The notes beneath the pieces were generated by a model. The model did no database searches and was not told the DNA's origin. It was given only the letters and a program-made list of their open reading frames with translations. 48,866 nucleotides of DNA from Pseudomonadota bacterium (GTDB lineage Bacteria > Pseudomonadota > Gammaproteobacteria > Burkholderiales > JAJZQI01), in contig JAJZTZ010000002.1 of NCBI GenBank assembly GCA_021847305.1, forward strand, positions 1 to 48,866. The letters run 5' to 3'. Of this stretch, positions 18,268 to 36,530 are shown in pieces. Made by a program: the position numbers and the translations under genes. Within the stretch, counting starts at the first letter, position 1. Each line of letters begins with the position of its first letter.

Positions 18268-18273
18268 ATCGGG

Positions 18274-18819: not shown

Positions 18820-18873
18820 TGTCTGTCCCTGAAAAATGTTTGCTGCAAAAACTTAAGCAGCTATGCTTTTTGC

Positions 18874-18915
18874 GCCTCACGCCTCACGCCTCACGCCTCA
18901 CGCCTCACGCCTCAC
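18874..18915. repeat. Perfect tandem heptanucleotide repeat (GCCTCAC)x6; GTGAGGC on the coding strand
   Basis: Six exact units run from 18874 to 18915, followed by a partial GCC. The first unit on the minus strand contains the gltX stop codon (TGA at 18914..18912). The array ends 55 nt upstream of the DUF2062 ATG (18819). Confidence 0.95.
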
Positions 18916-20303: not shown

Positions 20304-20377
20304 GCGAAACTCGGCAACAGGTTGGCAAAGATGCTATTTTACGACAGAGTCAAACAACAACGATAGCCGCATTGTCG

Positions 20378-22153
20378 ATGACCACACCTGTTGACCCATT
20401 GTTTCAGGCCTTTCTTGAACAGGCCCGGCTGGCAGATGAATTTCTGGCGGCGGGCCGCTTTGCCGATGCGCGTCAGCTGATAGGCGATTTGCTGCTGGTG
20501 GATCCAGCTAATGCGGTTTTGCACCTGCAACTGGGCGCCTGCTGTCACGCTCTGCTTGATTATCCGGCTGCCCGCGCGGCACTGGAACGGGCCGTAGCGC
20601 TTGATCCACTGCTGGCCGACGGCTGGGCTGATCTCGGCGCCGTGCTGCAGACTCAGCGGGCCACGGCCGAGGCGGAGGCGGCATTTCGCCGGGCCCTGCA
20701 GCTTGATCCGGGTCACCCCCAGGCACTGCTTAATCTGGGACACCTGCTGCGCGACAAGGGGCGTCTGATGGAAGCACGGCAGTGCTACAGCGCTTTACTC
20801 GAACAGGGGCACTATCCTTTGCTGGCAATACGGCTCGCGACCCTGTTGCCGGCGGTTTATGCTTCAAGCGAAGAAGCGGAATCGTGTTTTGCTAACATTC
20901 ATAACAAACTGGCTGCTCTGGAGCACCAGTCTCTCTCCAGTTGCCTGGACCCCATTGCGTGCGGCGGTGGCAACGCCTTTTATCTGGCCTATCAGGGTAG
21001 GCCGGTTGCTGCTTATCAGCGGCGCATTGCCGCACTTTATCGACGCATGTACGATCCGCCGTATAAAGTTGCCCGCAAGCCGAGCAAGGAGCAGAAGCGC
21101 CGGGTAGCTTTTGTGTCTGCCTTTTTGCGTGAACATACCATCGGCCATTTGCTGGCAGGCGTGATCAGCCGTTTGCCCCCCGACCGTTTTGATGTGTTTG
21201 TACTGTTGCTGGGAGCGCCGCCGGATGATTTAAGCCAGCAGCTGGCTGCAGGAGTACAGCATTTCGAGCATCTTCCGGGCAGCGACGTCAATGCAATTGC
21301 CGGGCGCATTGCTGCTTTGCAGCTGGATGTGCTGGTGTATGCCGATATCGGTATGGAACCGGTCAGTTACTTCCTGGCATTCAACCGGCTTGCTCCGGTG
21401 CAGGCCGTACTGTGGGGGCACCCCGTTACGACGGGAATTGATACAGTTGATTATTATGTCAGCAGCGAGGCGCAGGAAACGCCGGGCAGCGAGGCGGAGT
21501 ACAGCGAGCAACTGGTGCGCCTGCCACGTTTGCTGAGCTGGTATGAGGCGCCGCCGCAGGTGCAACGCAGCGCTCAAGATTTTGGCTTGAATGCCGATAG
21601 TTTTCTCTATGTTTGCCCGCAGAGTCTGTTCAAGTTTCACCCTGACTTTGATGTGCTGCTGCGGCAGATATTGTTGCAGGATCCGTCCGGTTATCTCGTG
21701 TTGATGCAAGGTCATCAACCGGAGTGGACGGAGCAATTACAGGCGCGTTTCAGCAACACTCTGCCGGATGTGTTCGACAGGATCGTCTGGCTGCCCAGGC
21801 TGGCATATGCAGAGTACCTTGGTTTGCTGACGTGTGCCCATGTGATGCTCGACCCGCTGTATTTCGGCGGCGGAAAAACGACGCTCGATGCCTTGTCTGT
21901 GGGTTTGCCGGTAGTGACGTTACCCGGTAGGACAATGCGTAGCCGTGGGACCGTAGCGTGTTGTGCGCAGATCGGCTGGTTTGCCGGTGTGGCTCAGTCG
22001 CCGGATGACTACGTCAAACGGGCTGTCGCCCTGGCACGCGAATTTGGGGCTACCGAGAGGCAGGCGCTGGCCGAGTTGGCACGCGGTTTGCAAAAAGACC
22101 AGTTGGCTGTAAATGCGTTCGCCGATTGGTTGAGTGCCGCTGCAGTCGGCTAA
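20378..22153 (+). CDS. TPR-repeat protein fused to a SPINDLY/OGT-like (GT41) glycosyltransferase domain, about 591 aa
   Basis: The N-terminal ~150 aa are TPR repeats. The C-terminal blocks are typical of bacterial GT41: RVAFVSAFLREHTIGHLL, WGHPVTTGIDTVDYYVSS, YSEQLVRLP, FKFHPDFD, LDPLYFGGGKTTLDALSVGLPVVTLPG. The track ORF starts at TTG 20372; the ATG at 20378 is preferred. Confidence 0.85.
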   Translation: MTTPVDPLFQAFLEQARLADEFLAAGRFADARQLIGDLLLVDPANAVLHLQLGACCHALLDYPAARAALERAVALDPLLADGWADLGAVLQTQRATAEAEAAFRRALQLDPGHPQALLNLGHLLRDKGRLMEARQCYSALLEQGHYPLLAIRLATLLPAVYASSEEAESCFANIHNKLAALEHQSLSSCLDPIACGGGNAFYLAYQGRPVAAYQRRIAALYRRMYDPPYKVARKPSKEQKRRVAFVSAFLREHTIGHLLAGVISRLPPDRFDVFVLLLGAPPDDLSQQLAAGVQHFEHLPGSDVNAIAGRIAALQLDVLVYADIGMEPVSYFLAFNRLAPVQAVLWGHPVTTGIDTVDYYVSSEAQETPGSEAEYSEQLVRLPRLLSWYEAPPQVQRSAQDFGLNADSFLYVCPQSLFKFHPDFDVLLRQILLQDPSGYLVLMQGHQPEWTEQLQARFSNTLPDVFDRIVWLPRLAYAEYLGLLTCAHVMLDPLYFGGGKTTLDALSVGLPVVTLPGRTMRSRGTVACCAQIGWFAGVAQSPDDYVKRAVALAREFGATERQALAELARGLQKDQLAVNAFADWLSAAAVG

Positions 22154-22220
22154 GATGCCTTCATGGTGTTGCGGTTGTTCTGTAACGCCATGATTGTAAA
22201 TATTAATTATAAGGACGGGG

Positions 22221-23675
22221 ATGCCAGACGGAATGACTGACGGTAATTGGCTCGAGCAGGGCATTACTGCTCACGACAGGGGAGATTTTGCCGGTGCGGT
22301 TGCCGCCTACCGGCAATTTTTGTCATTGACTCCAGGAAACGTCGACGTCCTGACCTTGCTTGGCAACGCCTTGCAGCAATCCGGCGATTACCCCGGAGCC
22401 ATTGCAGTCTATGCCGATGCGCTTACATTGCAGCCGGAAAATGCTGTGCTGCAAAACAATACCGGCGTGGCTTTGCGGCAGCAGGGCTATCTGGACGATG
22501 CGCTGGATTGCTTTCTCAATGCCATCAACCTGGCACCCTCTTATGTTGATGCCTGGTTGAATATCGGTTCAGTGTTGAATATCCAGGGGCGGTTGGAGCA
22601 TGCTGCCACGGCTTTCAACCGCGTGCTTGATCTGGAGCCGCAAAATCCCAAAGTGCATGTTGGCCTGGGCAATACCTTGTCGCGCGCAGGTTTGTTTGAT
22701 GCTGCTCTCACTTCATACGAAACGGCTTTGCTGCTTGAGCCCGGTAATACCGATGCCCGCTGGGGGCGCGGTCTGGTTAATTTGAGTCTGGGGCAATGGG
22801 ACACTGCCTGGCAGGATTACGAACTGCGTTTCCGTGTGCAGACAGCCTATCCGTTTACCTATGACAAGCCGCGCTGGCGGGGTGAAGGCTTTGCCGGCAA
22901 AACTCTGCTGATACACGATGAAATCGGTTACGGCGATGTGTTCCAGTTTTCGCGCTATTTCCCTCGTGTGAAACAGCGCGGCGGGCGGGTTTTGCTGGAA
23001 GTGAAGCCAGGTCTCAAGCATCTGTTTGAGGGTTTTCCTGGAGTCGACGAAGTGCGCGAGCGCGGCACTCAGCCGCAGTCTGAAGCCGATTTTGATCTGG
23101 TTGTGCCACTGGAAAGCCTGCCCGGCATCTTTGCCACGCGTGTTGATACGATTCCACCTGTTGTGGCTCCTGCCGTGCCCGAGTCGTTGCAGGTGGTCTG
23201 GCAGGAAAGACTGGCTGCCCTGTCCGGCCGTAAAGTCGGCATCGTCTGGGCGGGCAATCCCAACAGCGCCTTCGATGCCGAGCGTTCCATGCAACTCACG
23301 GACTTGCTGCCGCTGCTGCGCGCCGCGAGTGATTGCAGTTTTGTCAGCTTGCAGGTGGGGGCGTCCAGCGAGCAGTTGCAGCATGCTGATCTAGCCATTC
23401 TTGATGCTTCGTCATGGCTGACTGATTTTTCCGAGACAGCCGCAGCCATCCAGTCGCTGGATCTGGTGATTACGGTGGAAACCTCCGTCGCGCATCTGGC
23501 CGGCATGCTTGGCAAGCCCACTTGGGTCATGCTGGCCAAAGTGCCGGCATGGCGCTGGGGGGTAGATGGCGACGGTACGCCCTGGTATCCGAGCATGAAA
23601 CTCTATCGCCAGACTGAAAGCGGCAATTGGAGCAGCGTGCTGGATGCTGTGGCCAAAGACCTCGGAGCTATCTGA
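22221..23675 (+). CDS. TPR-repeat protein fused to a GT9-like (heptosyltransferase-fold) glycosyltransferase domain, 484 aa
   Basis: About 200 aa of TPR repeats, then the GT9-like blocks [26 protein letters not shown], and [23 protein letters not shown]...WRW. It is a paralog of 33772..35463. Confidence 0.85.
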
Positions 23676-24445
23676 TGAAGGCTGTCATTCTGGCCGGCGG
23701 CCTGGGTACGCGCATCAGCGAGGAATCCCACCTGAAACCGAAGCCGATGATCGAAATCGGCGGCAAGCCGATTCTCTGGCACATCATGAAATCGTACTCG
23801 CACCACGGCATCAATGATTTCATCATTTGCCTGGGTTACAAGGGCTATGTCATCAAGGAATACTTCGCCAACTATTTCCTGCACATGTCCAATGTCACGT
23901 TCGATATGGCGAACAACAAGATGGAAATCCACCAGAATTATGCCGAACCCTGGCGCGTGACGCTGGTCGATACCGGCGCTGAGACGATGACCGGCGGGCG
24001 CCTCAAGCGGGTGCAAGAGTATCTGGGTGACGAAACGTTCTGTTTTACCTATGGCGATGGCGTTTCCGATGTGAATATTTCGGAGTTGGTGCGTTTTCAC
24101 GAAGCGCATGGCAAAAAAGCCACTGTGACGGCGATTCAGCCGCCGGGTCGATACGGCGCCTTGAAGCTGGATGATTCTGCTTCGGTAATGCACTTTCAGG
24201 AAAAGCCTGCCGGGGACGGAGCCTGGATCAACGGCGGTTTCTTCGTACTGCAGCCCTCTGTCATTGACTATATTGCCGGTGATCACTCCAGTTGGGAAGG
24301 GGAGGCACTTGAACGCATTGCGGCTGAAGGCGAATTGAAAGCTTATCAGCATCGCGGATTCTGGCAGGCGATGGATACGCTACGCGACAAAACCCAGTTG
24401 GAAGAACTTTGGGCAAGGACGAACCCGCCGTGGAAGGTCTGGTAG
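23675..24445 (+). CDS. rfbF: Glucose-1-phosphate cytidylyltransferase, 256 aa
   Basis: [59 protein letters not shown]... is near-canonical RfbF/DdhA. The ATG at 23675 overlaps the upstream TGA by 1 nt. Confidence 0.92.
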
Positions 24446-24448
24446 AGC

Positions 24449-25519
24449 ATGTTCGGCGGCGTATATTCTGGTAAACGGGTACTGATTACCGGGCATACCG
24501 GCTTCAAGGGTAGCTGGCTGGCGCTATGGCTTAAAGAGCTGGGCGCGACAGTGACAGGCCTGGCGCTCGAGCCGGAAGCCGCTCCCAGTCACTGGGAAGC
24601 GCTCGGACTCGGCATTGACAGTCACATTGTCGATATCCGTGATTACCCGGCAGTGCAGCGGGTGTTTGACGCAACACAGCCAGAAATTGTGTTTCATCTT
24701 GCCGCCCAGTCTCTTGTTCGCCGCTCCTATCGCAATCCGCTGGATACCTGGTCGGCTAATGTCATGGGTACTGCCTGCCTGCTGGAAGCCTGTCGCAATA
24801 CGCCAGCTGTACGCGCAGTTGTGGTCGTTACGACGGATAAGGTGTACGACAATCAGGAATGGCCCTGGGGCTATCGGGAGAACGATCGACTCGGTGGTCA
24901 TGATCCCTACAGCGCTTCCAAGGCAGCTAGCGAACTGGTGGCTGACAGCTACCGCAAGTCTTTTTTCTCCGCTGCTAGTGCGCCCTTGCTGGCAACGGCG
25001 CGGGCCGGTAATGTCATAGGCGGCGGAGACTGGTCAGAAGACCGACTTATTCCCGATCTGGTACGCGCTGTAAACCGGTCGGTAAATCTGGAAATCCGTT
25101 CGCCCAATGCCACGCGACCATGGCAGCATGTACTCGACTGCCTGTCCGGCTATTTGCAGCTCGGACAGGGGCTGTTACAGGGCAACCCGGATCTCGCAAC
25201 AGCATGGAATTTCGGTCCTGCAGCCAGTGACAACCGCACGGTCGCGCAGATACTGGCCATGCTGACGGAGCACTGGCCTGAAGTCCGCTGGTCGCTTGCT
25301 GCCAATGCTGATCTTCACGAAGCCAGCCAGCTTTATCTCGATAGCGCCAAGGCAAAGCAGGTGCTGCGCTGGCGGCCTGTGTGGGGACTTGAAGGGGCTG
25401 TCGCTGCGACGGCAGCATGGTATCGAGCTTATGCAGTGGGTCAGATAGAGTCGCGCCAGCAGCTGGCCGACTATTTTCGCGCGGCACAGGGTGCGGGTGT
25501 GGAATGGGCCAAAACTTGA
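24449..25519 (+). CDS. rfbG: CDP-glucose 4,6-dehydratase, 356 aa
   Basis: KRVLITGHTGFKGSWLALWL..LGA.VTG (Rossmann), the catalytic YSASKA (YxxxK), and a length and C-terminus typical of RfbG/DdhB. Directly follows rfbF. Confidence 0.92.
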   Translation: MFGGVYSGKRVLITGHTGFKGSWLALWLKELGATVTGLALEPEAAPSHWEALGLGIDSHIVDIRDYPAVQRVFDATQPEIVFHLAAQSLVRRSYRNPLDTWSANVMGTACLLEACRNTPAVRAVVVVTTDKVYDNQEWPWGYRENDRLGGHDPYSASKAASELVADSYRKSFFSAASAPLLATARAGNVIGGGDWSEDRLIPDLVRAVNRSVNLEIRSPNATRPWQHVLDCLSGYLQLGQGLLQGNPDLATAWNFGPAASDNRTVAQILAMLTEHWPEVRWSLAANADLHEASQLYLDSAKAKQVLRWRPVWGLEGAVAATAAWYRAYAVGQIESRQQLADYFRAAQGAGVEWAKT

Positions 25520-26067
25520 AAATTCATGCTACCGCGATTGAAGGCGTGGTTTTAGTCGATACCCGGGTGTTAGAAGATGAGCGAGGTGCTTTTTCGCGTT
25601 TGTATTGCGAACGAGAGCTGGCATCTGTACTGAGGCAACGTCATATAGTGCAGGTCAACCGGTCGCTTACGCGAAAGTCCGGCGCTATCCGTGGCATGCA
25701 TTTCCAGCATGCGCCTCATGCTGAAATGAAGCTGATCCGCTGTCTCCGCGGGCGAGTGTGGGATGTCGCTGTGGATATTCGGGCAGGATCCCCGACATTT
25801 CTGCACTGGCATGCCGAGGAACTGACGCCTAATAACGGCAGAATGATGGTAGTGCCGGAGGGGTGCGCGCATGGTTTTCAGGTGCTGGAAGACGATAGCG
25901 AACTGCTTTATCTGCATACGGCGTTTTATGAGCCGAGCGCAGAAGCCGGCTTGCTTTTCGATGATCCCCGTCTGGCGATCAAATGGCCCTTGCCGGTAAC
26001 TGAACTTTCCCGGCGTGATCGTGAACATGCTCCCATTGCCGGTGATTTTGCGGGAATTCGCTTATGA
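25504..26067 (+). CDS. RmlC-like cupin sugar-nucleotide 3,5- (or 5-/3-) epimerase, 187 aa
   Basis: Start placed at the ATG at 25504 (MGQNLKIHATAIEGVV...), overlapping rfbG by 16 nt. RmlC-type blocks: DERG.F, RGMHFQ..PHAE.KLIRC..G.VWDVAVDIR, VPEG.AHGF..L.D....LY....Y.P..E.G...DDP.L.I.WP. Confidence 0.85.
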   Translation: MGQNLKIHATAIEGVVLVDTRVLEDERGAFSRLYCERELASVLRQRHIVQVNRSLTRKSGAIRGMHFQHAPHAEMKLIRCLRGRVWDVAVDIRAGSPTFLHWHAEELTPNNGRMMVVPEGCAHGFQVLEDDSELLYLHTAFYEPSAEAGLLFDDPRLAIKWPLPVTELSRRDREHAPIAGDFAGIRL

Positions 26068-27287
26068 AATGCCGTCACTGCGGTCAGCCGCTGGAAAATG
26101 TCTTTCTCGATCTGGGTTTTGCCCCGCCATCGAATGCCTATTTGAATGAAGCTGATCTGACTGCACCGGAACTCTATTTCCCCCTCAAACTGTATGTGTG
26201 CGACCATTGCTGGCTGGTGCAGACGATCGATTACAGTCGTGCTGACGAACTGTTCAGTCATGACTACGCCTATTTTTCCTCTGTTTCAAAAACCTGGCTT
26301 GATCATGCCGAGCGCTACAGTGTGAAGATGATCGACCGGTTCGGTCTGGGGCCGCACAGTCATGTGGTCGAAATCGCCTCCAACGACGGTTATCTGCTGA
26401 AAAATTTCGTCGCCCGGAATATTCCTTGCCTGGGTATAGAACCTACTGCCAGCACCGCACAAGCTGCGCGTGCGCTGGGAATCCCCGTGCTGCAAGAGTT
26501 TTTCGGCGAGTCTTTGGCTCATCGTCTGGCCGGCGAAGGCAGGCAAGCTGATCTGCTGGCGGGTAACAACGTGTTTGCCCATGTACCCGATATCAATGAC
26601 TTTACCCGCGGCCTGAAGGTTCTCCTAAAGCCGGGTGGGGTGGTCACGCTCGAATTTCCGCATTTGATGCGCCTGCTGGAGTTCGGTCAATTTGATACGG
26701 TTTATCACGAGCATTTTTCCTACCTGTCTCTGTATACCGTTTCACACATTTTTGCCGAAGCGGGTTTGCGCGTTTGGCTGGTCGAAGAGCTGCCGACACA
26801 TGGCGGCAGTCTGCGAGTGTATGGCTGCCATGACGAGGATGCTCGGGCTGAAGATGAATCGGTGGCGCGCATTCTGGCTGAAGAAGAACACCGCAGAATG
26901 CGCGATTTGGCTTTGTATCTTGCCTTTCAGGCGACGGCAAACCGCATCAAGGACGATTTGCTGACGTTTCTGCTTGAGCAGAAACGCGCAGGGAAACGGG
27001 TCATGGCCTATGGTGCAGCAGCTAAGGGCAACACGCTGCTCAACTATGCCGGTGTGAAACCGGATCTGCTGGCTGGCGTGTATGACGCCGCTCCGTCGAA
27101 GCAGGGCAAGTTCATGCCCGGCAGCCATATCCCCATTTTGGATCCGCAACGCATTATTGAAGACAGGCCTGATTACCTGCTCATTCTGCCCTGGAATATT
27201 GCCGCAGAAGTACGGACACAGCAGGCAGTTATTACTTCATGGGGTGGACATTTCGCGGTGGCGGTACCGTCATTGGAGGTGAGTTGA
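26064..27287 (+). CDS. SAM-dependent NDP-hexose C-methyltransferase (TylC3/TcaB9-like), 407 aa
   Basis: N-terminal four-Cys motif (CRHCG...CDHC), a class I SAM fold (VVEIASNDGYLL), and the family-typical EHFSYLSL...GGSLRVY and C-terminal YGAAAKGNTLLNY...PGSHIPI blocks. ATGA overlap with the epimerase gene. Confidence 0.8.
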   Translation: MKCRHCGQPLENVFLDLGFAPPSNAYLNEADLTAPELYFPLKLYVCDHCWLVQTIDYSRADELFSHDYAYFSSVSKTWLDHAERYSVKMIDRFGLGPHSHVVEIASNDGYLLKNFVARNIPCLGIEPTASTAQAARALGIPVLQEFFGESLAHRLAGEGRQADLLAGNNVFAHVPDINDFTRGLKVLLKPGGVVTLEFPHLMRLLEFGQFDTVYHEHFSYLSLYTVSHIFAEAGLRVWLVEELPTHGGSLRVYGCHDEDARAEDESVARILAEEEHRRMRDLALYLAFQATANRIKDDLLTFLLEQKRAGKRVMAYGAAAKGNTLLNYAGVKPDLLAGVYDAAPSKQGKFMPGSHIPILDPQRIIEDRPDYLLILPWNIAAEVRTQQAVITSWGGHFAVAVPSLEVS

Positions 27288-28156
27288 TGCGGATTGCCGT
27301 GACCGGAGCCAACGGATTTATCGGTAAACACGTGGTGGCGCAGTTGCTGGAGCGTGGATGTGAGGTTGTTGCTTTGTTGCGGGAACCCGCCAGGCGGCCC
27401 GAAACATGGTCTGGACGGGTAGAGATTGTGCCATTTGATCTCGGCGAAGCGAGTGTCGGGATGTATGACCGGCTGCAGCGCCCTGATGTGCTTATTCACT
27501 TGGCTTGGGGTGGTTTGCCCAACTACCGTTCGTTGCAGCATTTTGAAGTTGAGTTGCCCCGCCAGTACCAATTCCTATCGACGCTTGTGCGCGAGGGGCT
27601 GCCGGCGATGCTGGTTGCCGGGACTTGTTTCGAGTACGGCATGCAAGCCGGTATGCTGCGTCCGTCCATGCCGTCCATGCCGACTAACCCCTATGGCTAC
27701 GCTAAAGATGCATTGCGGCGACAATTGCAAATGCTGCAAATCGAGCAAAGTTTTAATCTGATTTGGGGACGAGTATTTTACCTGTATGGTGAAGGGCAAT
27801 CGCCCACATCACTTTATCCCAAACTGGAAGCCGCTGTCGCAGCGGGTGCCAGCGTATTCGATATGTCCGGCGGTGAACAGCTAAGAGACTATCTGCCTGT
27901 CGCCGAGGTTGCCAGGCGAATTGTCGTGATGGCTCTGTCCGGCCGAAATCTGGGAGTGCAGAATATCTGTTCGGGCCAGCCTATTTCCGTGCGCCGATTG
28001 GTTGAGACATGGATCGAGGCAAACAATTGGACTATCCGGCTCAATCTGGGTGCATTTCCGTACCCGGACTACGAACCCATGGCATTCTGGGGCGAGGATT
28101 CATTTTCGCTGCTGCGGCTTGAACAGGCGAAAGTGGCCGCTGAAGGGGTTGCATGA
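27287..28156 (+). CDS. NAD(P)-dependent SDR epimerase/reductase (probable sugar 4-ketoreductase), 289 aa
   Basis: MRIAVTGANGFIGKHVV Rossmann motif and the YGYAK catalytic YxxxK. The ATG at 27287 overlaps the upstream TGA by 1 nt. Confidence 0.85.
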   Translation: MRIAVTGANGFIGKHVVAQLLERGCEVVALLREPARRPETWSGRVEIVPFDLGEASVGMYDRLQRPDVLIHLAWGGLPNYRSLQHFEVELPRQYQFLSTLVREGLPAMLVAGTCFEYGMQAGMLRPSMPSMPTNPYGYAKDALRRQLQMLQIEQSFNLIWGRVFYLYGEGQSPTSLYPKLEAAVAAGASVFDMSGGEQLRDYLPVAEVARRIVVMALSGRNLGVQNICSGQPISVRRLVETWIEANNWTIRLNLGAFPYPDYEPMAFWGEDSFSLLRLEQAKVAAEGVA

Positions 28157-28812: not shown

Positions 28813-28854
28813 GATTGCTGCGTCGGCAATGCCAATTTAGAAAGTACTGAGTAC

Positions 28855-31800
28855 ATGAAAAGTAAAAGTCCTCAATTAACCGTAGGTTTGCCTGTTTTTA
28901 ACGGCGAGAAGTTTGTCGGCAATGCAATCGAGTGCATGCTGGAACAAACTTATTCGGACTTTGTTTTCATTATTTCCGACAACGCTTCCACCGATGCAAC
29001 AGAAGAAATTTGTCGTCAATACGAGAAGTTCGACAAGCGCATCAAGTACTACCGCAATGAACAAAATCTCGGGGCGGCGAAGAATTTCGAGCTTCTCTAT
29101 CAAAAGGTCGAGACGCCTTTCTGGACGCCAATCTCACATGATGATTATTTTTCTCTCAATTTTCTCGAGTCCTGTCTCGGCAAACTGATCGACAATCCGG
29201 ATGCTGTTTTGGCCGCCCCGGCGCAGATTGCCGCAATTAATGCAAATGGTTTTATCAAGCGGATTGAGCGGAATTTCAACACTGAAGGCATGGGGCTCTC
29301 GGAAAGGCTGTGCCATTTACTCGACCGCATTATGTGGGTGTCGTTCTACGGTGTCAGCCGTACCTCCGTGTTTGGCGAGGTCTGGTCGAAAATCGGACCC
29401 TACAAGACGCGTTTTGGCGCCGACGTGATATTTCTGGCCGGTATGCTGCTGAAAGGGCAGATTGTTTCGGCTGATGGGGCGACATTTTTTTACCGTGAAG
29501 CGGATGCGGAAAAGCCCGCGGCCGTTTACGCACAGGATTTACTGCCAGGTCAGGCTGTGTCATCGATGCCGTACACAGGACTGCTGGAGTCGATTCTTGA
29601 AGTGCTGTTCCTGTTTGCCGACGTGGCCGTGGAGCAAAGAGCGATAATCAGCAATGACATCCTTCAAACCGTATTGAAACAGCCTGGGTGGGCTTATCAA
29701 CTGGAGCGGGAACAACGTAATCAGGAAGGTGACACAGCTGCCCCTGCTTCTGCGGCGGCAGAACAGATTACCTCAGCTCCCGTCGCAGTTGTTCCGGCTT
29801 CGACCAATCAATTGCCGCATTCAACTGCTGCTGCCGTAACAGAGAAACCCGGTTTTACGGCGAATTTCGGCATCAATGTGGTCGGGCATGTCTCTGGCAA
29901 TCTTGGTTTGGGCGTGTCGGCTCGAAGTGTCATCAAGTCTTTACTGGAAAATGGTATTCCACTGGCAATTTTTGATGTCGACCCAGGTCTAGGGCGAGGG
30001 CGCAAAGATCTGACTTTTGCCCAGTATCATGTAAAGTCGCTGGAAGAATTGGTTTACCCGATAACACTGTTCATGATGCCCCCAACCATTGGCTGGCTGA
30101 AAGAGGCAATACCCGAACTTTTTCCCGCTGACAAGCTTTTGATTGCATACAGTATGTGGGAATTGCCTGTCCTGCCGCCTCAATGGATGGAGTCGCTGGA
30201 GACATTTGATGTGCTGGTGGCCGGCTCAGAGTTTATTCGGCATGCGTTTGAATTCAATTTGTCCAAAGTTCAGACAATTGTAACCAAGCACCCGCTTTAT
30301 TTGCCCGATAACATTGTGGGGGATCGGGCCCGATTCAACCTGCCTGCTGATAAAACCATTTTTGTCACCGCTTTTGAGCCGAATAGCGATCCGATGAGAA
30401 AAAACCCTCGTGGAACTCTGCGCGCCTTTCTTTCAGCATTTCCGGATGATGATTCTGTTTGTCTAGTCGTTAAAGTCAATAATGCCTATGCGGATGGAAT
30501 TCTGCATTCATCGGTGGTCGAATTGCAGAGTATCGCAAGTGATGACAAGCGGATTGTCTTTATCACAGCGAGCATGCCGTATGTCGACGTGCTGAGACTT
30601 TATGCCTCCTGCGATGTTTTTGTCTCACTTCATCGGGCGGAGGGATTGGGCCTTGGCTTAATGGAGGCCATGGCGTTGGGTAAGCCGGTTATAGCAACTG
30701 GCTGGTCAGGCAATATGTCCTTCATGGATCATACCTGTGCCTGTCTGGTGCCCTATGTGCTTATTCCCGTCAACGGCAGTATTCCCGCATACACAAGTGC
30801 GGAGCTTGGGCGTGAGGCAAAGTGGGCAGAGCCTTCGCTCGCGCATGCCTCAGCCTGGATGCGGCAATTAGCGGCTTCCCAGGAGCTGCGCAGTGAAATA
30901 GGGCAGGCTGCAGCTCGTGCTATGGCTAGGCATCACAAGGAGGCAAGCGCAGCCGAGTTTGTACGCGAGCTGCACTCGATCTGGCAGCATCAACAATTCC
31001 TGCCCCGTTCTGTTGAAATTGACGAAGGCGCAGGTGCCATTGCTGGTCTAAATGCGGTCGACCAAGCATATCAGATATGGCGCAATAAGCATTCAATGCA
31101 GGAAATCGATGCCCAGATTCTGGCCGAGCGTATGGTGACCCAATGGCAATCCAAACCGGTCTTCCATTTTGTGGTTCTGGTGGTGCAGGGGCAGGAGCAG
31201 GAACTGGCGGATGCCATTGATAATTTGGCTGGTCAGATGTATGGCAGCTGGCATTTGACCGTGATTGCTGATTTCCCCTCGCCGGACAGCGCCTTCGGTC
31301 AGGCTGAACACCTCCAGTGGATTCGGATGCAGCCAGATTGGCTGCTATCCGACGTGCTGAATGTTGTAGTTGATCGCAGAAAAGGCGACTGGTTTGCCGT
31401 CACCGCTCCGGGGTTTGTCCTGGAGCCGCAAACCTTGCTGGTGCTGGCCAACTACATCAATGCCTATCCCGACTGGAAGCTGATTTATACAGATGAAGAC
31501 CGGTTAAACAAAAACGGCCGCCATGTGTTGGCCCGTTTCAAGCCGGAGTTCAACCTGGAGTGGCTGCGTGCGTCCAATTTTCTGGGTGACCTGGTTTTCT
31601 GCAGTGGGGAGGCAATTGAGGCCGTAGGCGGGTTCGTCAATTTGCCGGGCGCCTATCAGTATGACCTGACGCTTCGACTCTATGAGATGTTCGGTGAAAG
31701 CGTTATGGGGCATGTGGATGACGTGCTGGTATCTTTCTCTGAACAATTCTGGTCTTTGGTCGATGGCGAGGCGGAAGAGGAAGCCGTGCGTCAGCATTTG

Positions 31801-33768
31801 CAACGATTGAATGTGTCGGCGGATGTGTCGGCGGGTTATCAGCCGGGTACGCGCAGGGTGATGTACCAGTGGGATACCCAGCCCGCTGTTTCGATCATTG
31901 TTCCCAACAAGGATAGCCTCGAATATTTGCAACCTTGCCTGCAGAGCCTGTTCGAGAAGACCGCTTACCCGGATTTCGAAGTTCTGGTGGTGGACAACGG
32001 CAGTACCGACCCGGATGTGCTTGAGTTTTATGAGCAGATGCTGGCGCAGGAGCCGCGACTGCGGCTGTTAAAGTATCCGCAGCCGTTCAACTTCTCGGTG
32101 ATGAACAATCTGGCTGCACGGGAAGCCCGCGGCGACTATCTGGTGCTCCTCAACAATGATACCCAGATTGTTCAAGCGGACTGGCTGACTCGTCTGATGT
32201 CCTATGGGCAGCGGCCGGATGTCGGCATCGTCGGTGCCCGCCTGGTCTATCCGGAAACAGGCATACTACAGCATGCAGGGGTTGTTCTGGGCATGCAGGG
32301 CATTGCAGACCACATATTCAATGGCCAGCTCAAAATGGACGAGCCGGGGTATCTTGGCCGTGCGCATGTCGATCAGGAATATTCGGCGGTGACAGCCGCC
32401 TGCTTGCTGGTGCGCAAATCCCTGTACGATCAGGTGGGGGGGCTGGATGAAGAAGCCTTCAAGGTTTCCTATAACGATGTAGACCTGTGCCTGAAGATCA
32501 GGCAGTTGAATTACAAAATCATCTGGACGCCTTATGCGACTGTGGTCCATCACGGGTCGGTGTCGCAGAAGGCTTCAAATGTCGATCTGATGAAGCGGGC
32601 ACTGAATGCCCAGCGCTTTGAGGCGGAGCAGCATGCCATGATGAGAAAATGGCTGCCGCAACTTGCCAATGATCCCGCATACAACCGCCATCTAAGCCTG
32701 ATGACGCCGGATTGTCGCGCGGAAAGCAGCATCGTCATTGACTGGGATACCCGCTTCCATGATCGCCGCCGGATTCTCGGGGTGCCATTGACCGGAGGGT
32801 CGGGCGAGTACCGGGTAATCAGCCCGTTTAGGGCGATCAGTCGTGCCGGTTTGGCTCAGACAGCGATTGTGCAGGCGGCCAAAATGTTTGAGACGCGGGT
32901 CATACTGCCGGTTGAGCTTGAACGCGCGGCTCCGGATGTTCTGGTGTTGCAGTCCGCTGTAGATGACAGGCAGCTGCAAGCCTTGCAGGAATACAAGGAA
33001 TTCAATCCCTCGGTGAAACGCATTTTCACGCTGGATGATCTGGTTACTCAGATTCCGCAGAAAAGCGCCTCGTATCGACACTCCTACCGCGATGCAAAAC
33101 CGCGTTTGCGGAAAGCATTGGCCCTGTGTGACAGGGCCATAGTGAGTACCGAGCCGCTGGCGGAACTGTGCCGTTCCATGATCGACGATGTCAGGGTGCT
33201 GCCCAACAGGCTGGAGGCAGCTATCTGGGGTGGGCTGACTTCACAGCGTGGTCATGGCAAGAAACCTCGAGTAGGCTGGGCAGGCGCGCAGCAGCATGCC
33301 GGTGATCTGGCCTGGATAACTGATGTGGTTAGAGAGACGGCGGGCGAAGTGGAGTGGGTGTTTCTGGGTATGTGCCCGGATGAAATCCGGCCGTTTGTCC
33401 ATGAGGTCCATGATTTCGTACTGTCTTTCTACGATTACCCGGCCAAATTGGCCAGCCTGAATCTTGATCTGGCGATTGCACCGCTGGAAATGCTCGCTTT
33501 CAATGAGGCGAAGAGCAACTTGCGTCTGCTCGAGTATGGGGCAATGGGGTGGCCGGTCATTTGTACCGATATTTACCCCTATCAGACCAATGCCGCACCG
33601 GTATGCCGTCTGCCGAACGATGTGGCTGCATGGGTCAATGCAATTCGCGAACGGATCTATGATCTTGATGCCGCCTACAGGGAAGGCGATAGGCTGAAGG
33701 CCTGGGTGGCGCAGCATTACATTCTTGAGAATAAGCTGGATGACTGGTTTGACGCCCTGGCCCGATGA
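28855..33768 (+). CDS. Giant multi-module glycosyltransferase, 1637 aa (GT2, GT4-like GT-B, degenerate GT2-like, GT2, C-terminal GT-B-like)
   Basis: Module 1 (about 28870-29500): GLPVFNGEKFV...IISDNASTD...SHDDY. Ala/Pro/Ser/Thr linker (about 29720-29860). Module 2 (about 29866-30960): GT4 EX7E motif, RAEGLGLGLMEAMALGKPVIAT. Module 3 (about 31160-31800): FHFVVLVV...LIYTDEDRL. Module 4 (about 31885-32560): VSIIVPNKD...VVDNGSTD...LLNNDT...GIVGARLVYP. Module 5 (about 32760-33765): PRVGWAGAQQH...LDLAIAPL...NEAKSNLRLLEYGAMGWPVICT. Confidence 0.85.
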   Translation: MKSKSPQLTVGLPVFNGEKFVGNAIECMLEQTYSDFVFIISDNASTDATEEICRQYEKFDKRIKYYRNEQNLGAAKNFELLYQKVETPFWTPISHDDYFSLNFLESCLGKLIDNPDAVLAAPAQIAAINANGFIKRIERNFNTEGMGLSERLCHLLDRIMWVSFYGVSRTSVFGEVWSKIGPYKTRFGADVIFLAGMLLKGQIVSADGATFFYREADAEKPAAVYAQDLLPGQAVSSMPYTGLLESILEVLFLFADVAVEQRAIISNDILQTVLKQPGWAYQLEREQRNQEGDTAAPASAAAEQITSAPVAVVPASTNQLPHSTAAAVTEKPGFTANFGINVVGHVSGNLGLGVSARSVIKSLLENGIPLAIFDVDPGLGRGRKDLTFAQYHVKSLEELVYPITLFMMPPTIGWLKEAIPELFPADKLLIAYSMWELPVLPPQWMESLETFDVLVAGSEFIRHAFEFNLSKVQTIVTKHPLYLPDNIVGDRARFNLPADKTIFVTAFEPNSDPMRKNPRGTLRAFLSAFPDDDSVCLVVKVNNAYADGILHSSVVELQSIASDDKRIVFITASMPYVDVLRLYASCDVFVSLHRAEGLGLGLMEAMALGKPVIATGWSGNMSFMDHTCACLVPYVLIPVNGSIPAYTSAELGREAKWAEPSLAHASAWMRQLAASQELRSEIGQAAARAMARHHKEASAAEFVRELHSIWQHQQFLPRSVEIDEGAGAIAGLNAVDQAYQIWRNKHSMQEIDAQILAERMVTQWQSKPVFHFVVLVVQGQEQELADAIDNLAGQMYGSWHLTVIADFPSPDSAFGQAEHLQWIRMQPDWLLSDVLNVVVDRRKGDWFAVTAPGFVLEPQTLLVLANYINAYPDWKLIYTDEDRLNKNGRHVLARFKPEFNLEWLRASNFLGDLVFCSGEAIEAVGGFVNLPGAYQYDLTLRLYEMFGESVMGHVDDVLVSFSEQFWSLVDGEAEEEAVRQHLQRLNVSADVSAGYQPGTRRVMYQWDTQPAVSIIVPNKDSLEYLQPCLQSLFEKTAYPDFEVLVVDNGSTDPDVLEFYEQMLAQEPRLRLLKYPQPFNFSVMNNLAAREARGDYLVLLNNDTQIVQADWLTRLMSYGQRPDVGIVGARLVYPETGILQHAGVVLGMQGIADHIFNGQLKMDEPGYLGRAHVDQEYSAVTAACLLVRKSLYDQVGGLDEEAFKVSYNDVDLCLKIRQLNYKIIWTPYATVVHHGSVSQKASNVDLMKRALNAQRFEAEQHAMMRKWLPQLANDPAYNRHLSLMTPDCRAESSIVIDWDTRFHDRRRILGVPLTGGSGEYRVISPFRAISRAGLAQTAIVQAAKMFETRVILPVELERAAPDVLVLQSAVDDRQLQALQEYKEFNPSVKRIFTLDDLVTQIPQKSASYRHSYRDAKPRLRKALALCDRAIVSTEPLAELCRSMIDDVRVLPNRLEAAIWGGLTSQRGHGKKPRVGWAGAQQHAGDLAWITDVVRETAGEVEWVFLGMCPDEIRPFVHEVHDFVLSFYDYPAKLASLNLDLAIAPLEMLAFNEAKSNLRLLEYGAMGWPVICTDIYPYQTNAAPVCRLPNDVAAWVNAIRERIYDLDAAYREGDRLKAWVAQHYILENKLDDWFDALAR

Positions 33769-33771
33769 TTT

Positions 33772-35463
33772 ATGGGGTATGGCCTAGTGGAAGCCGGGCA
33801 GGAGCTCGCGCAGGCAATTTCGCTGCATATGGCCGAGCGGTTGGACGAGGCCGGCGCAATTTATATGCAGCTGCTGGCGCAGCAGCCTGAAAATCCAGAT
33901 CTACTGTTTCTGCTCGGGACACTCAGGGTGCAACAGGGGGCCCTGCATGATGCGCAGGCAGCCCTGTCAAATCTTCTGCGGGTCCATCCGCGGCATGTCG
34001 ATGGATGGGCGCAGCTGGCCGAAGTTTACCGCTCCATGGGGCAGATCGCCGAGGCGTTGCATTGCTATCGGCAGGTTCTGCTGCTGGCGCCGGAAAATGT
34101 GGCAGCGCGCACGGGTGAAGCCGCGTGCCTGGACGAGTTGCTCGCCAGTGCGCAGCAAGCCATGCAGGCGGCGCTGGATGCCTATCAGCAACGAGACTTT
34201 CCTGCAGCCATTCAATGGGCAACAGAATCCCTCAATCGCTTCCCAAGCGCAGTGGCCTGGAACAACTTGGGGGTGGTCTATAAAGAGCAGGGCAATCTGC
34301 CTGAAGCGGAAAATGCCCTGCGGCAGGCAATCAGCTTGGCACCGGATTATGCCGAGGCCTGGAGTAATCTGGGCAACGTCTATTGGGTGCAGTACCGCTA
34401 TGCAGATGCACTCGACCCATATGAAAGGGCTGTAAAACTGCAGCCGAACAACCCGGTTTCCTGGAATAACCTTGGCAATGGTTTGCAGGCGGCAGGTCGC
34501 CTGGATGAAGCTGTTGAGGCGTTTGAACGGGCGCTGCAACTTCAGCCTGACTTCGCCATGGCGCATTGGAATCATGGTATTGCGGCGTTGCTTAAAGGGG
34601 ATTACCGCACCGGCTGGGATGAATACGAGTGGGGGTTTGCCTGTGGGTTGCGTCCGTTAAAATTTCAATCTGTTCCGGTTTGGCAGGGTGAATCGGGCGC
34701 GCGCCTGATTGTGTATGCGGAACAGGGTTTTGGCGATGTGTTGCAGTTCGTTCGCTTCATGCATGTTTTGCCGGCCAAAGTAACCCGGCTGGCACTGGTT
34801 GTGCCGGTAGAGCTGCAGCGGCTCTTGCAGCGATCCTTTCCGGCGGTTCAAGTTGCCACAGAGTCGGGAGTGAATACGCAAGAATATACTGCCGTACTGC
34901 CCTTGATGAGTGTGCCGCATCGCTTGGGCCTGGTGGAGACGGCTGATTTGACCATCCCGGCACCCTATTTGAAAGTTGATCAGGCTAAAGCGACGCGCTG
35001 GCGGGAACGCATCTCCGGCAATGCCGGTATGCAGATCGGCATTGCCTGGCAGGGGAGTCGCAAGCACAAAAGTGACTTGCTTCGATCTGTACCGGCTGAG
35101 CAGCTGGTGCAGGCGTTGGCCGGAGGAGGTGTGTCGCTTCACAGTTTGCAGGCGGGGCCTGATGCGCCTGAAGCACCGCAGAACGTGACGGATTGGCGGG
35201 CAGAAATTCAAGATTTCGATGACCTTGCCGCTATAGTCAATGAGCTTGATTGTGTGGTAACGGTAGACACGGCCGTTGCACATCTGGCGGGTGCGCTGGG
35301 TAAACATGTCTACCTGCTTTTGCCTTTTGCACCTGACTGGAGGTGGGGGCGGTACTCTGAAAGTTGCGTCTGGTACGATCGGATGCACTTGATCAGACAG
35401 CCGTCACCAGGGGAGTGGGATGCAGTCATGCAGCGCCTGGAAGACGCGCTGATAAAAAAATAA
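33772..35463 (+). CDS. TPR-repeat protein fused to a GT9-like glycosyltransferase domain, 563 aa (paralog of 22221..23675)
   Basis: About 290 aa of TPR repeats, then LIVYAEQGFGDVLQFVRF, GIAWQGS, and VVTVDTAVAHLAGALGKHVYLLLP..PDWRW. Last gene before fliC. Confidence 0.85.
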   Translation: MGYGLVEAGQELAQAISLHMAERLDEAGAIYMQLLAQQPENPDLLFLLGTLRVQQGALHDAQAALSNLLRVHPRHVDGWAQLAEVYRSMGQIAEALHCYRQVLLLAPENVAARTGEAACLDELLASAQQAMQAALDAYQQRDFPAAIQWATESLNRFPSAVAWNNLGVVYKEQGNLPEAENALRQAISLAPDYAEAWSNLGNVYWVQYRYADALDPYERAVKLQPNNPVSWNNLGNGLQAAGRLDEAVEAFERALQLQPDFAMAHWNHGIAALLKGDYRTGWDEYEWGFACGLRPLKFQSVPVWQGESGARLIVYAEQGFGDVLQFVRFMHVLPAKVTRLALVVPVELQRLLQRSFPAVQVATESGVNTQEYTAVLPLMSVPHRLGLVETADLTIPAPYLKVDQAKATRWRERISGNAGMQIGIAWQGSRKHKSDLLRSVPAEQLVQALAGGGVSLHSLQAGPDAPEAPQNVTDWRAEIQDFDDLAAIVNELDCVVTVDTAVAHLAGALGKHVYLLLPFAPDWRWGRYSESCVWYDRMHLIRQPSPGEWDAVMQRLEDALIKK

Positions 35464-35473
35464 AAATAGGGCC

Positions 35474-35500
35474 TAAAGTTCTTGGTGGCACTGCCGATAA
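35474..35500 (+). promoter_or_regulatory. Sigma28 (FliA) class III flagellar promoter for fliC
   Basis: TAAAGTTC-N11-GCCGATAA (35474-35481 / 35493-35500). This has one mismatch to the enterobacterial consensus TAAAGTTT-N11-GCCGATAA. It lies about 97 nt upstream of the fliC ATG. Confidence 0.85.
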
Positions 35501-35596
35501 CCAACATGACAGCGGTTGAAATGTGGTTTGAGCCTCAACCGGGGTCTAAGGCTTAAACCTTGTTTTAATTGGTTCATCCGGTTAAGGAGAAAGAAA

Positions 35597-36451
35597 ATGG
35601 CACTCGTCGTCAATACTAATATTGCTTCGCTGATTGCTCAGAACAACCTGAATAATTCGCAAAGCGCACTGCAAGTTTCCCTGCAACGTCTGTCTTCCGG
35701 TCTGCGTGTAAACAGCGCCAAGGATGACGCAGCAGGTCTGGCAATTTCCCAGGCATTCACCGCACAAATTCGTGGTAACAACCAGGCGATCCGTAACGCT
35801 AACGACGGTATCTCTCTGGGTCAAACCGCTGAAGGCGCGCTGGGTCAGATTGCTAACAACGTACAACGTATTCGTGAAATTGCCGTACAGGCAGCCAACG
35901 GTACCATCAGCGATACCAACCGTTCTCAGCTGCAGAACGAGGTGAACCAGCTGACCCAGGAAATTTCCCGTATCGTTCAGACCACCAACTTCAACGGCAC
36001 CAACCTGCTGTCCGGTGCAAGCACCCTGACCTTCCAGGTGGGCGCTTCCGGTTCCAGCAACAACCAGGTAAGCATTACCACTACCAACCTGGCACAAAGC
36101 GGTTCCGCTGGTCTGTATTCCTACGCTACCAGCCTGACTGCAACCGGTACTGTGGATATCACCACCTCCGGCAATGCTTCTGCTGCGATTGCCAATCTGG
36201 ATGCCGATATTTCCCAGATTTCCACCGTACGCTCCACCTTCGGTGCGGTTCAGAACCGTTTCGAGGCTGTGGTTGCCAACCTGCAGAACTACGTGCAGAA
36301 CCTGACTGCAGCAAACAGCCGTATCATTGACGCTGACTTTGCTTCGGAAACGGCTAACCTGACGCGTAACCAGATTCTGCAGCAAGCTGGTACCGCGATC
36401 CTGTCTCAGGCAAATGCTCTGCCGCAGACTGCACTGACCCTGTTGCGTTAA
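35597..36451 (+). CDS. fliC: Flagellin, 284 aa
   Basis: ATG at 35597 preceded by AAGGAG. Canonical N-terminus [18 protein letters not shown]...[20 protein letters not shown] and C-terminus ...[34 protein letters not shown]. The central region is short. Confidence 0.96.
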
Positions 36452-36509: not shown

Positions 36510-36530
36510 GACCGTTAAAGGAGTGTGAAA

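Follow-up and report, generated by a model that had tools for sequence, protein, structure and literature searches.

Ten closely spaced glycan genes lie upstream of the flagellin gene fliC in the 48,866-nt stretch of DNA that we analyzed (hereafter the window), and their position raises the question of what they glycosylate. A first-pass annotation had taken flagellin to be the target from position and architecture, and had called the gene set unfamiliar. The latter holds for the CDP-branched-sugar pathway and the combination of enzyme modules, which are unusual, but not for the central enzyme, which by homology falls into a known family. Most probably the locus is an island of the known FgtA kind whose enzymes O-glycosylate flagellin in the cytoplasm, set apart by its sugar pathway and by extra enzyme modules.

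A soluble gene set between gltX and fliC

ORF calling placed ten tightly packed plus-strand ORFs at 20378-35463 (Table 1), with successive junctions of +67, -1, +3, -16, -4, -1, -4, +42, and +3 nt and a gap of 133 nt to the fliC ATG at 35597. Since gltX lies on the minus strand, it is divergent from the island. The co-directional, close-set run between gltX and fliC, the three TPR-glycosyltransferase fusions, the six-gene CDP-hexose modification pathway, and the five-module enzyme that the first-pass annotation had described all stand, with the start of rfbF amended to the ATG at 23675.

Domain searches found no Wzx, Wzy, or Wzz, no ABC or OPX exporter, and no polyprenyl-phosphate priming transferase, nor did they find Maf or NeuB domains, in line with the earlier view that export and polymerization machinery and a pseudaminic or legionaminic acid route are missing. 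None of the island proteins has a transmembrane-like segment (maximum KD19 1.73, versus 2.66 for the FtsX control). The soluble protein set and the missing export genes agree with the cytoplasmic glycosylation that had been proposed.

Table 1. Features of the glycan island and neighboring genes in the window
Feature	Position	Strand	Basis or remark
gltX	18912-20303	-	
TPR + GT41 (OGT/SPINDLY-type) glycosyltransferase, 591 aa	20378-22153	+	Glyco_transf_41, 66 bits (cut-off 25); TPR families
Second sigma28-type motif, TCAAGATT-N11-GCCGATAG	21574-21600	+	in 3' third of GT41 ORF
tprA, TPR + GT9-like GT-B, 484 aa	22221-23675	+	TPR families
rfbF, glucose-1-phosphate cytidylyltransferase	23675-24445	+	TIGR02623 equivalog, 470 bits (cut-off 300)
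rfbG, CDP-glucose 4,6-dehydratase	24449-25519	+	TIGR02622 equivalog, 471 bits (cut-off 278)
RmlC-family 3,5-epimerase of NDP-4-keto-6-deoxyhexose	25504-26067	+	PF00908, E 2e-60
NDP-sugar 3-C-methyltransferase (TcaB9/KijD1/mycarose C3-methyltransferase family)	26064-27287	+	Methyltransf_13, Methyltransf_14
SDR, putative 4-ketoreductase	27287-28156	+	Epimerase/GDP_Man_Dehyd families
Hexapeptide-repeat acyltransferase (CysE/WcaB-like), putative O-acetyltransferase	28153-28812	+	Hexapep
1637-aa multi-module glycosyltransferase	28855-33768	+	five modules
Module 1, N-terminal GT2, residues 1-300	28855-29754	+	PF00535
Module 2, GT4-type GT-B, residues 330-700	29842-30954	+	Glycos_transf_1, Glyco_trans_1_4
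Modules 3-5, FgtA-like core (GT2-like 735-1003; GT2 1004-1265; C-terminal GT-B 1290-1637)	31057-33768	+	FgtA alignment, hhalign, AF2, Foldseek
tprB, TPR + GT9-like GT-B, 563 aa	33772-35463	+	TPR families, weak PF01075 match
Predicted sigma28 (FliA) promoter of fliC, TAAAGTTC-N11-GCCGATAA	35474-35500	+	one mismatch to consensus
fliC, 284-aa flagellin, presumed acceptor	35597-36451	+	Flagellin_N, Flagellin_C
flaG	36525-36902	+	ORF call, Pfam in L001
fliD	36938-38242	+	ORF call, Pfam in L001
fliS	38248-38694	+	ORF call, Pfam in L001
fliT	~38691-38999	+	ORF call, Pfam in L001

The central enzyme has an FgtA-like core that adjoins flagellin genes

Residues 773-1637 of the 1637-aa protein are collinear with residues 855-1687 of FgtA (WP_010793909.1), with 37% identity over 870 columns (E 2e-131); the match takes in the GT2-like, GT2, and GT-B parts in the C-terminal ~865 residues of the 1637-aa protein. 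Module 3 matched module 4 in hhalign (92%), and the C-terminal GT-B domain was modeled by AF2 with a pLDDT of 83.8 and gave Foldseek matches to GT4 enzymes (E 2e-13). The family of this domain comprises 1298 clusters at E<=1e-30, and the domain is almost always C-terminal in proteins of 1100-2500 aa; judged by these matches, the central enzyme is a member of a large, already exemplified family. Its DED and NND motifs and more than 100 invariant columns are conserved across ten homologs. NND is missing from the second GT2 module of FgtA but conserved in the 1637-aa protein, so that the start of the glycan can be assigned to the core but not confidently to one of its modules.

Comparison of the gltX-fliC interval with other loci, which had been suggested as a check, showed that the FgtA-like core or its C-terminal domain adjoins a flagellin gene in 13 of the 14 loci examined (the window, L001, L004, L087-L092, and L094-L097). 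These take in Acidithiobacillus, Pseudomonas, and eight metagenomic contigs picked regardless of context; the sole exception is L093, with no flagellin gene nearby. Both the FgtA homology of the C-terminal 865 residues and this linkage support flagellin as the target.

The P. aeruginosa b-type island (PA1088-PA1091; FgtA), in which a pa1091 mutant makes non-glycosylated flagellin (PMC11833859), resembles the window in having a large multi-module soluble enzyme just upstream of fliC, small donor-synthesis genes including a nucleotidyltransferase upstream, and the same sigma28 motif at fliC. It differs in position (between flgL and fliC, rather than gltX and fliC), in having no TPR transferases, whereas the window has three, and in its donor genes, which serve a CDP-threonine route instead of a CDP-hexose C-methyl route. 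At its N-terminus FgtA carries a TagF-like phosphotransferase, which adds phospho-N,N-dimethylthreonine, whereas the 1637-aa protein has GT2 and GT4 modules there. We propose that the FgtA-like core (residues ~735-1637) is most likely the glycan starter and that the GT2 and GT4 modules fused to it would lengthen the glycan.

A predicted CDP-linked branched sugar

The six genes between tprA and the central enzyme predict a CDP-6-deoxy-3-C-methylhexose, possibly O-acetylated. RfbF would convert Glc-1-P to CDP-glucose and RfbG would convert this to CDP-4-keto-6-deoxyglucose, after which C3-methylation, 3,5-epimerization, and 4-reduction would give the branched sugar, the order of methylation and epimerization and the final stereochemistry not being readable from the sequence. 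The earlier statement that the island has no rml genes is too strong because the epimerase scores 167.9 against the NCBIfam rmlC cut-off (TIGR01221) of 155.75; it also has PDB matches to RmlC (E 1e-36). The C-methyltransferase has full-length PDB matches (5T64, 4RV9, and 3NDI; E 1e-65 to 1e-70), and the SDR has weak ones, GDP-6-deoxy-4-hexulose reductases among them. For the hexapeptide acyltransferase, which probably O-acetylates the sugar or the finished glycan, matches to EpsC, CysE, and WcaB fell under the cut-off. A Pfam search of the window did not find rfbH/ddhC and ddhD, which are required for 3,6-dideoxyhexoses.

Pathways of the TcaB9, KijD1, and TylC3 (mycarose) type have a full-length homolog of this methyltransferase and likewise combine it with a 4,6-dehydratase, an RmlC-type epimerase, and a ketoreductase, but they make dTDP sugars for actinomycete antibiotics, whereas activation here would be by CTP in a flagellar context. 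In C. difficile type A (CD0240-CD0244), a GT2-family flagellin glycosyltransferase and accessory genes also use a CDP-activated donor; CD0240, however, is single-module, and CDP-(methyl)threonine is moved as a phosphodiester, not as a CDP-sugar. In the 1960s, CDP-vinelose, a CDP-linked 6-deoxy-3-C-methyl-2-O-methyl-hexose, was reportedly isolated from Azotobacter vinelandii, and no acceptor was assigned to it; a search of a literature collection for vinelose gave no hits. The branched sugar of this pathway is not known to have been described on flagella.

The pathway and the large enzyme also occur together elsewhere. Between flgL and fliC, Acidithiobacillus thiooxidans (L004) has the five-module enzyme together with the same six sugar genes, including a 38%-identical gene at the position of the hexapeptide acyltransferase. 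All three lineages with the C-methyltransferase pathway carry the N-terminal GT2 module, which is missing from 9-10 core-bearing loci without the pathway (rough Fisher p 0.0035) and is our best candidate for the transferase of the branched sugar. The rfbF-rfbG-C-methyltransferase-epimerase set is also found away from flagellin genes (L056 and L057).

TPR-glycosyltransferase fusions and their possible targets

All three TPR proteins combine TPRs with a GT-B domain. PDB matches of the GT41 protein include human OGT, SPINDLY, XcOGT, and HMW1C. tprA and tprB encode paralogs that are 34% identical over their full length; the C-terminal domain of TprB was modeled (AF2 pLDDT 88.8) with WaaF, GT9, WaaC, and TibC as best Foldseek matches, and that of TprA was assigned as GT9-like by homology. 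The best structural or sequence matches thus include soluble cytoplasmic protein-glycosylating enzymes, TibC/BAHT (GT9) and OGT/SPINDLY/HMW1C (GT41), although TibC shares only 11-14% sequence identity and the acceptors of these enzymes are autotransporter adhesins or nucleocytoplasmic proteins, in contrast to the flagellin proposed here.

A parallel in domain architecture is Caulobacter FlmG, a proven flagellin transferase, soluble, cytoplasmic, and encoded with flagellar genes, in which ~200-300 residues of N-terminal TPRs precede a GT-B domain of ~280 residues; its TPR domain binds flagellin (PMC7591256). FlmG has been reported as confined to Caulobacterales and transfers pseudaminic or legionaminic acid, for which the window has no pathway, and the TPR proteins of the window have GT-B domains of GT9-like and GT41 type. 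The TPR arms of the three proteins may grip flagellin or another protein and add more sugars as FlmG does.

It is possible, if rather doubtful, that the targets are split, with only the large enzyme and its CDP-sugar pathway acting on flagellin, while the TPR transferases, tied to the island by nothing but co-regulation, would act on other cytoplasmic or secreted proteins or serve a regulatory, GmaR-like function. The A. thiooxidans locus has no TPR genes; by tblastn, L087 has the enzyme beside fliC with no TPR-GT9-like or GT41 domain detected, and L088 likewise lacks a separate gene of either kind. At least 6775 proteins belong to the TPR-GT9-like family, many of them with PF01075 and some from Cyanobacteria, Scalindua, and Tepidisphaerales; with this breadth, the family is not specific to flagellin. 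The GT41 gene survives only as remnants in the close, 83%-identical relative L001 and is therefore dispensable for the island's other work. Against such a split, tprA and tprB bracket the island and are kept in L001 at 73-80% identity, genes resembling them flank fliC in L090 and the Fibrobacterota contig L039, and FlmG shares their TPR plus GT-B architecture.

Predicted sigma28-type promoters and conservation of the island

In the flagellin, 28 of the 77 residues at 119-195 are Ser/Thr, as had been noted. Flagellin would be produced from the FliA promoter and glycosylated on Ser/Thr of this short exposed central segment before flagellar type III export. The near-consensus promoter reported ahead of fliC holds up (shuffled sequence gave 0.13 matches at <=3 mismatches), and the motif also precedes fliC in L001-L003 and P. 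aeruginosa. A second motif of this type is found 620 nt ahead of the gene at 22221. Only it and one other site in the window match YMAAG-N14-GCCGATAR (0.05 in shuffled sequence), and other matches across 92 loci lie only upstream of fliC or fliS. Homology between the window and L001 resumes exactly at this motif, its conserved blocks being identical at 16/16 positions and its spacer at 6/11. Both promoters are predicted to be active, and the second probably brings the operon from 22221 onward into the late flagellar regulon.

The lower GC content suspected for the island is real but modest (0.552, versus 0.584 outside; Mann-Whitney p 0.005). GC3 is ~0.52-0.68, below the 0.64-0.82 of flanking housekeeping genes, and the left border is unstable, with L001 lacking gltX as well as two thirds of the GT41 gene. 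A partly or wholly non-functional, decaying acquisition that leaves flagellin unmodified or minimally glycosylated could show these features, but we regard it as improbable: none of the ten ORFs is disrupted and their junctions are tight or overlapping, nine of the ten proteins are conserved at 72-94% identity in L001 while the DNA is 79.5% identical, and the motifs and invariant columns of the central enzyme are kept. Least probable of all, and very unlikely, is a cell-surface polysaccharide (O-antigen, capsule, or EPS) with a CDP-derived deoxysugar and a chance position beside fliC, which would fit rfbF and rfbG as classic O-antigen genes, a polysaccharide pyruvyl transferase gene 2 kb upstream, and the GT4 and GT2 modules, most of whose distant relatives occur in loci lacking flagellin genes, but not the missing assembly genes, membrane segments, and dideoxyhexose genes, the homology to FgtA, or the flagellin linkage.

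Downstream of fliC, flaG-fliD-fliS-fliT are collinear with L001 at 79.5% DNA identity, where Pfam identifies FlaG, FliD, FliS, and FliT, and the fliC-fliS block shares the island's lower GC.

Gene order, base composition and left border of the island

The ten genes between gltX and fliC run in the same direction on the plus strand (20378-35463), as the first-pass annotation had proposed, and neighbouring genes overlap by up to 16 nt or lie up to 67 nt apart. The fliC ATG at 35597 lies 133 nt past the last island gene; at the other end, gltX is on the minus strand and points away from the island. The encoded 284-aa FliC has the Ser/Thr-rich centre ascribed to it, with 28 Ser/Thr among residues 119-195. 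An early hint of low GC in the island also held up (0.552 vs 0.584 in the flanks, p 0.005), and the contrast is sharper at third codon positions, where values of 0.52-0.68 in the island compare with 0.64-0.82 in the flanks. The fliC-fliS genes have lower GC values, like the island.

The close relative L001, which is 83% identical, has neither gltX nor the first two thirds (5' side) of the TPR-GT41 gene (window 18823-21573 against L001 2621-2902), and fragments of the GT41 3' end at L001 2898-3288 are the sole remnant of that gene. Because of these losses, the left border of the island is unstable and GT41 is dispensable in L001, whose gltX must be located elsewhere in the genome. Just left of gltX in the window, genes for a polysaccharide pyruvyl transferase (PF04230) and for a DUF2062 protein occupy 17071-18819 on the minus strand; in L001, PF04230 pyruvyl transferase and DUF2062 genes directly adjoin the island.

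The 1637-aa glycosyltransferase shares its core with FgtA

Searching plasmid records by tblastn with the C-terminal domain of the 1637-aa protein matched a P. aeruginosa record with flagellar genes (L092), in the order flgK, flgL, methyltransferase, HAD phosphatase, NTP-transferase, 1694-aa protein, b-type fliC, flaG, fliD and fliS. This gene set is the PA1088-PA1091 island. Residues 773-1637 of the query align with residues 855-1687 of FgtA (PA1091) in a single collinear alignment (37% identity, 870 aligned columns, E 2e-131), and the two proteins have in common an FgtA-type glycosyltransferase core of a GT2-like, a GT2 and a C-terminal GT-B module. They differ in front of this core, where FgtA has a TagF-like phosphotransferase (PF04464 at residues 263-496), whereas the 1637-aa protein has PF00535 and GT4 domains and no match to PF04464 (TagF/CD0244-like phosphotransferase). 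The TagF-like N-terminus agrees with the published description of PA1091, a fusion of a GT2 glycosyltransferase with a CD0244-type phosphotransferase, and the flagellin of a P. aeruginosa pa1091 mutant is non-glycosylated (PMC11833859).

Within the core, FgtA (L092:4864-9948) keeps the DED of the first GT2-like module, and its second GT2 module has LGAGV at the position where NND is invariant in the window protein and nine homologs. The second GT2 module of FgtA may be inactive, and the loss of NND would fit a glycan of one sugar in Pseudomonas and a larger number of transfers in the window system. The core is presumably also homologous to P. syringae Fgt1/Fgt2. The L092 record itself (NZ_CP131792.1, 846,886 bp) has a plasmid label and conjugative typing, carries the core flagellar genes flgK-fleR including the b-type fliC, and could be either part of a chromosome or a megaplasmid of an unusual kind.

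The core is linked to flagellin genes across loci

In the window, a single gene separates the gene for the 1637-aa protein from fliC, 1.8 kb downstream. A flagellin gene adjoins the core or its C-terminal domain in 13 of the 14 examined loci carrying the core; in some of these loci the C-terminal domain has a gene of its own, which follows one for a 647-888-aa GT2 protein. Among family members picked solely by the length of their contig, five of six were flagellin-linked (L089, L090, L091, L094 and L095), L093 being the exception. The Acidithiobacillus thiooxidans locus (L004) has the same six sugar genes and the five-module enzyme between flgL and fliC, and no TPR genes.

This linkage emerged from searching with the C-terminal domain alone. 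An exhaustive profile search with that domain returned 1298 clusters at E<=1e-30, in which it nearly always forms the very C-terminal end of a protein 1100-2500 aa long; the 1637-aa enzyme thus belongs to a large family of variable architecture. A profile search of genome contigs with the whole-protein alignment returned mostly polysaccharide loci, since generic GT4/GT2 modules dominated, and distant relatives of these modules alone came mostly from loci without flagellin genes and without the C-terminal domain. Because they reflect generic-module matches and lack the C-terminal domain, such loci say little about the window system.

Several of the flagellin-linked loci have further features of their own. 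Giant multi-module enzymes lie beside an FgtA-like gene and short (277-281 aa) flagellins at L096 6994-12636 and L097 262-6600, one of 1880 aa (radical SAM plus several GT2 domains) and the other of 2112 aa (methyltransferases, GT2 and TPR). L090 (1-5412 and 9141-13519) is a flagellin locus with a split FgtA-like core, three radical-SAM genes and an SDR gene upstream, and two TPR proteins between core and fliC, one of 564 aa with a weak GT9 match and one of 894 aa. At L088 15424-18359 (Acidithiobacillus-like), the FgtA-like gene and fliC are separated by an inserted arsenic-resistance cassette that encodes ArsB, an ArsR-type HTH protein, an LMW phosphatase and a glyoxalase.

Type of glycan locus

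A Wzx/Wzy- or ABC-dependent surface polysaccharide locus would need a priming transferase, a flippase or polymerase, or an exporter. The island ORFs encode no Wzx/Wzy, priming or export domains, as had been noted at first pass, and on these missing genes such a locus is rejected. None of the ten proteins has membrane-like (hydrophobic) segments. A route to a CDP-3,6-dideoxyhexose, as in rfb/ddh O-antigen loci, finds rfbF and rfbG in place; the E1/E3 pair is missing, so the pathway is not the 3,6-dideoxyhexose route. A Maf/pseudaminic-acid system is ruled out by the lack of its defining genes, the ten ORFs having no NeuB/Pse/Leg or PF01973 (MAF_flag10) matches, in line with the earlier reading.

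Homology to FgtA and linkage to flagellin support the view of the first-pass annotation that this is a flagellin-glycosylation island. From the sequence we infer that the locus works like, and partly belongs to, the FgtA-type flagellin glycosylation islands of Pseudomonas, with flagellin as the predicted target and with a glycan and module roles that are likewise predictions.

N-terminal modules of the enzyme and the CDP-sugar pathway

No Pfam or NCBIfam model matches the C-terminal GT-B domain of the 1637-aa protein. The N-terminal part shows the lowest conservation in the family alignment. A fusion of modules would be expected to have a linker like the low-complexity one between the first two modules. 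The N-terminal GT2 module occurs only alongside the C-methyltransferase pathway (the window and L001, A. thiooxidans, and the Nitrospira loci L007 and L012) and is missing from nine to ten loci that have the core but not that pathway; the GT4 module is found both with and without it. The restriction of the N-terminal GT2 module to loci with the pathway makes it the leading candidate for the C-methyl-sugar transferase.

Features of the window, modules of the 1637-aa glycosyltransferase and loci with a flagellin-linked core
Feature	Position	Observation
ORF1, TPR-GT41	20378-22153	
Candidate FliA promoter within ORF1	21574-21600	
ORF2 (tprA)	22221-23675	
Five-module glycosyltransferase	28855-33768	1637 aa
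Module 1, GT2	residues 1-300	
Linker between GT2 and GT4 modules	29755-29841 (residues about 300-330)	Ala/Pro/Ser/Thr-rich, low complexity
Module 2, GT4	residues 330-700	
Module 3, GT2-like	residues 735-1003	hhalign 92%; DED motif invariant
Module 4, GT2	residues 1004-1265	NND motif invariant
Module 5, C-terminal GT-B	residues 1290-1637	model pLDDT 83.8; Foldseek GT4 matches down to E 2e-13
ORF9 (tprB)	33772-35463	
fliC promoter	35474-35500	TAAAGTTC-N11-GCCGATAA
Loci with flagellin-adjoining core or C-terminal domain		L001, L004, L087, L088, L089, L090, L091, L092, L094, L095, L096, L097 and the window

In the sugar pathway, rfbF and rfbG score far above the NCBIfam equivalog cut-offs and an RmlC-family epimerase gene scores above the rmlC cut-off. 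The methyltransferase is homologous over its full length to sugar 3-C-methyltransferases (KijD1, TcaB9 and the mycarose enzyme; E about 1e-70), and an SDR and a hexapeptide acyltransferase gene complete the set. Among the island ORFs there is no PMP-dependent dehydrase (rfbH/ddhC) and no reductase for it (ddhD), and the 3-C-methyltransferase stands in that place. Judged by these family functions, the predicted product is a CDP-6-deoxy-3-C-methylhexose, perhaps O-acetylated. Our literature search found no paper joining flagellin glycosylation to a CDP-glucose/C-methyltransferase route or to glucose-1-phosphate cytidylyltransferase, and a search on vinelose found nothing.

Three TPR proteins with FlmG-like architecture

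We classed the TPR proteins by TPR Pfam matches, GT41 sequence matches, a GT9-like model and the absence of transmembrane segments. ORF1 is a true GT41 enzyme, with PF13844 (the GT41 catalytic domain) at 66.1 bits against a cut-off of 25 and PDB matches to OGT and SPY at E 1e-34 to 1e-49. ORF2 and ORF9 are paralogs with 34% end-to-end identity, and their C-terminal domain gave nothing useful against PDB sequences from a single sequence or a 6-sequence profile. The model of this domain from ORF9 has a confident GT-B fold (pLDDT 88.8) and in structure matches GT9 enzymes best, namely WaaF, WaaC and TibC, the last a protein heptosyltransferase. At least 6775 proteins belong to the family, and many of them have a PF01075 tag. 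The ORF9 model and the Pfam tags of homologs suggest that the domain is GT9-like in both proteins.

All three window proteins have the build of the FlmG class, being soluble with an N-terminal TPR and a C-terminal GT-B part, a likeness of domain architecture. The TPR domain of FlmG binds flagellin (PMC7591256). FlmG belongs to a nonulosonic-acid system, whereas the window island has no such pathway.

The sigma28 promoter of fliC and a candidate one for the island

We took a TAAAGTTT-N11-GCCGATAA-type promoter 5' of genes as the mark of the FliA (sigma28) regulon. The motif in the fliC leader fits the sigma28 consensus with one mismatch, and shuffled sequence yields 0.13 matches at up to three mismatches. 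As a strict pattern (TMAAGNTT...) missed true fliC promoters, YMAAG-N14-GCCGATAR was used instead. It has two matches in the window (0.05 in shuffles), the fliC promoter and a site within the GT41 ORF, and its remaining matches in 92 loci lie only upstream of fliC or fliS. DNA homology between the window and L001 restarts exactly at the intragenic motif, in which both conserved blocks are identical and the spacer has diverged. Since the motif is conserved in L001, rare in shuffles and otherwise found only at fliC and fliS, we propose it as a candidate FliA promoter for the operon starting at 22221.

Predicted glycan and its meaning

Flagellin glycosylation affects the assembly of the filament, motility, the properties of the surface and how hosts and phages recognise it. 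Most of what is known of the mechanism was learned in nonulosonic-acid systems (Maf, FlmG) and in a few islands of Pseudomonas and Clostridioides. We tentatively suggest, as a model somewhat short of even odds, that the window flagellin would carry an O-glycan of several sugars, among them a CDP-derived 6-deoxy-3-C-methylhexose that may be O-acetylated and would be installed by the dedicated N-terminal GT2 fused to an FgtA-type core, and that the C-terminal GT-B would be the family's flagellin-recognition or priming module, a role like that of the TPR domain in FlmG/Maf-1 and of GlfM for Maf-2. That domain is common to more than 1000 giant enzymes, its flagellin linkage being seen in the loci examined (13/14). 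No such branched-chain sugar was found reported on flagellin in our literature search. The predicted methyl-deoxyhexose residue would give a mass shift of about 160.07 Da, and its acetylated form one of about 202.08 Da.

The locus suggests a biological acceptor for CDP-activated 3-C-methyl sugars and links the FgtA family with an environmental lineage not yet characterised. The conserved three-module core of this family takes interchangeable N-terminal modules (phosphotransferase, methyltransferase, GT2 or GT4), which suggests a rule for reading such islands: the core ties the enzyme to flagellin, and the N-terminal modules correspond to the neighbouring donor genes. With about 1300 clusters at E<=1e-30, the C-terminal GT-B domain would serve well as a marker when flagellin glycosylation islands are annotated.

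Elsewhere in the window, a gene for an EAL-domain response regulator adjoins those for two histidine kinases with PAS domains, of which one is a hybrid kinase that also has receiver domains (8270-14349, minus strand), possibly a c-di-GMP signalling module close to the flagellin locus. On the plus strand, 44724-47123 encodes a 799-aa protein with Ser/Thr protein kinase, HDOD and GAF domains.
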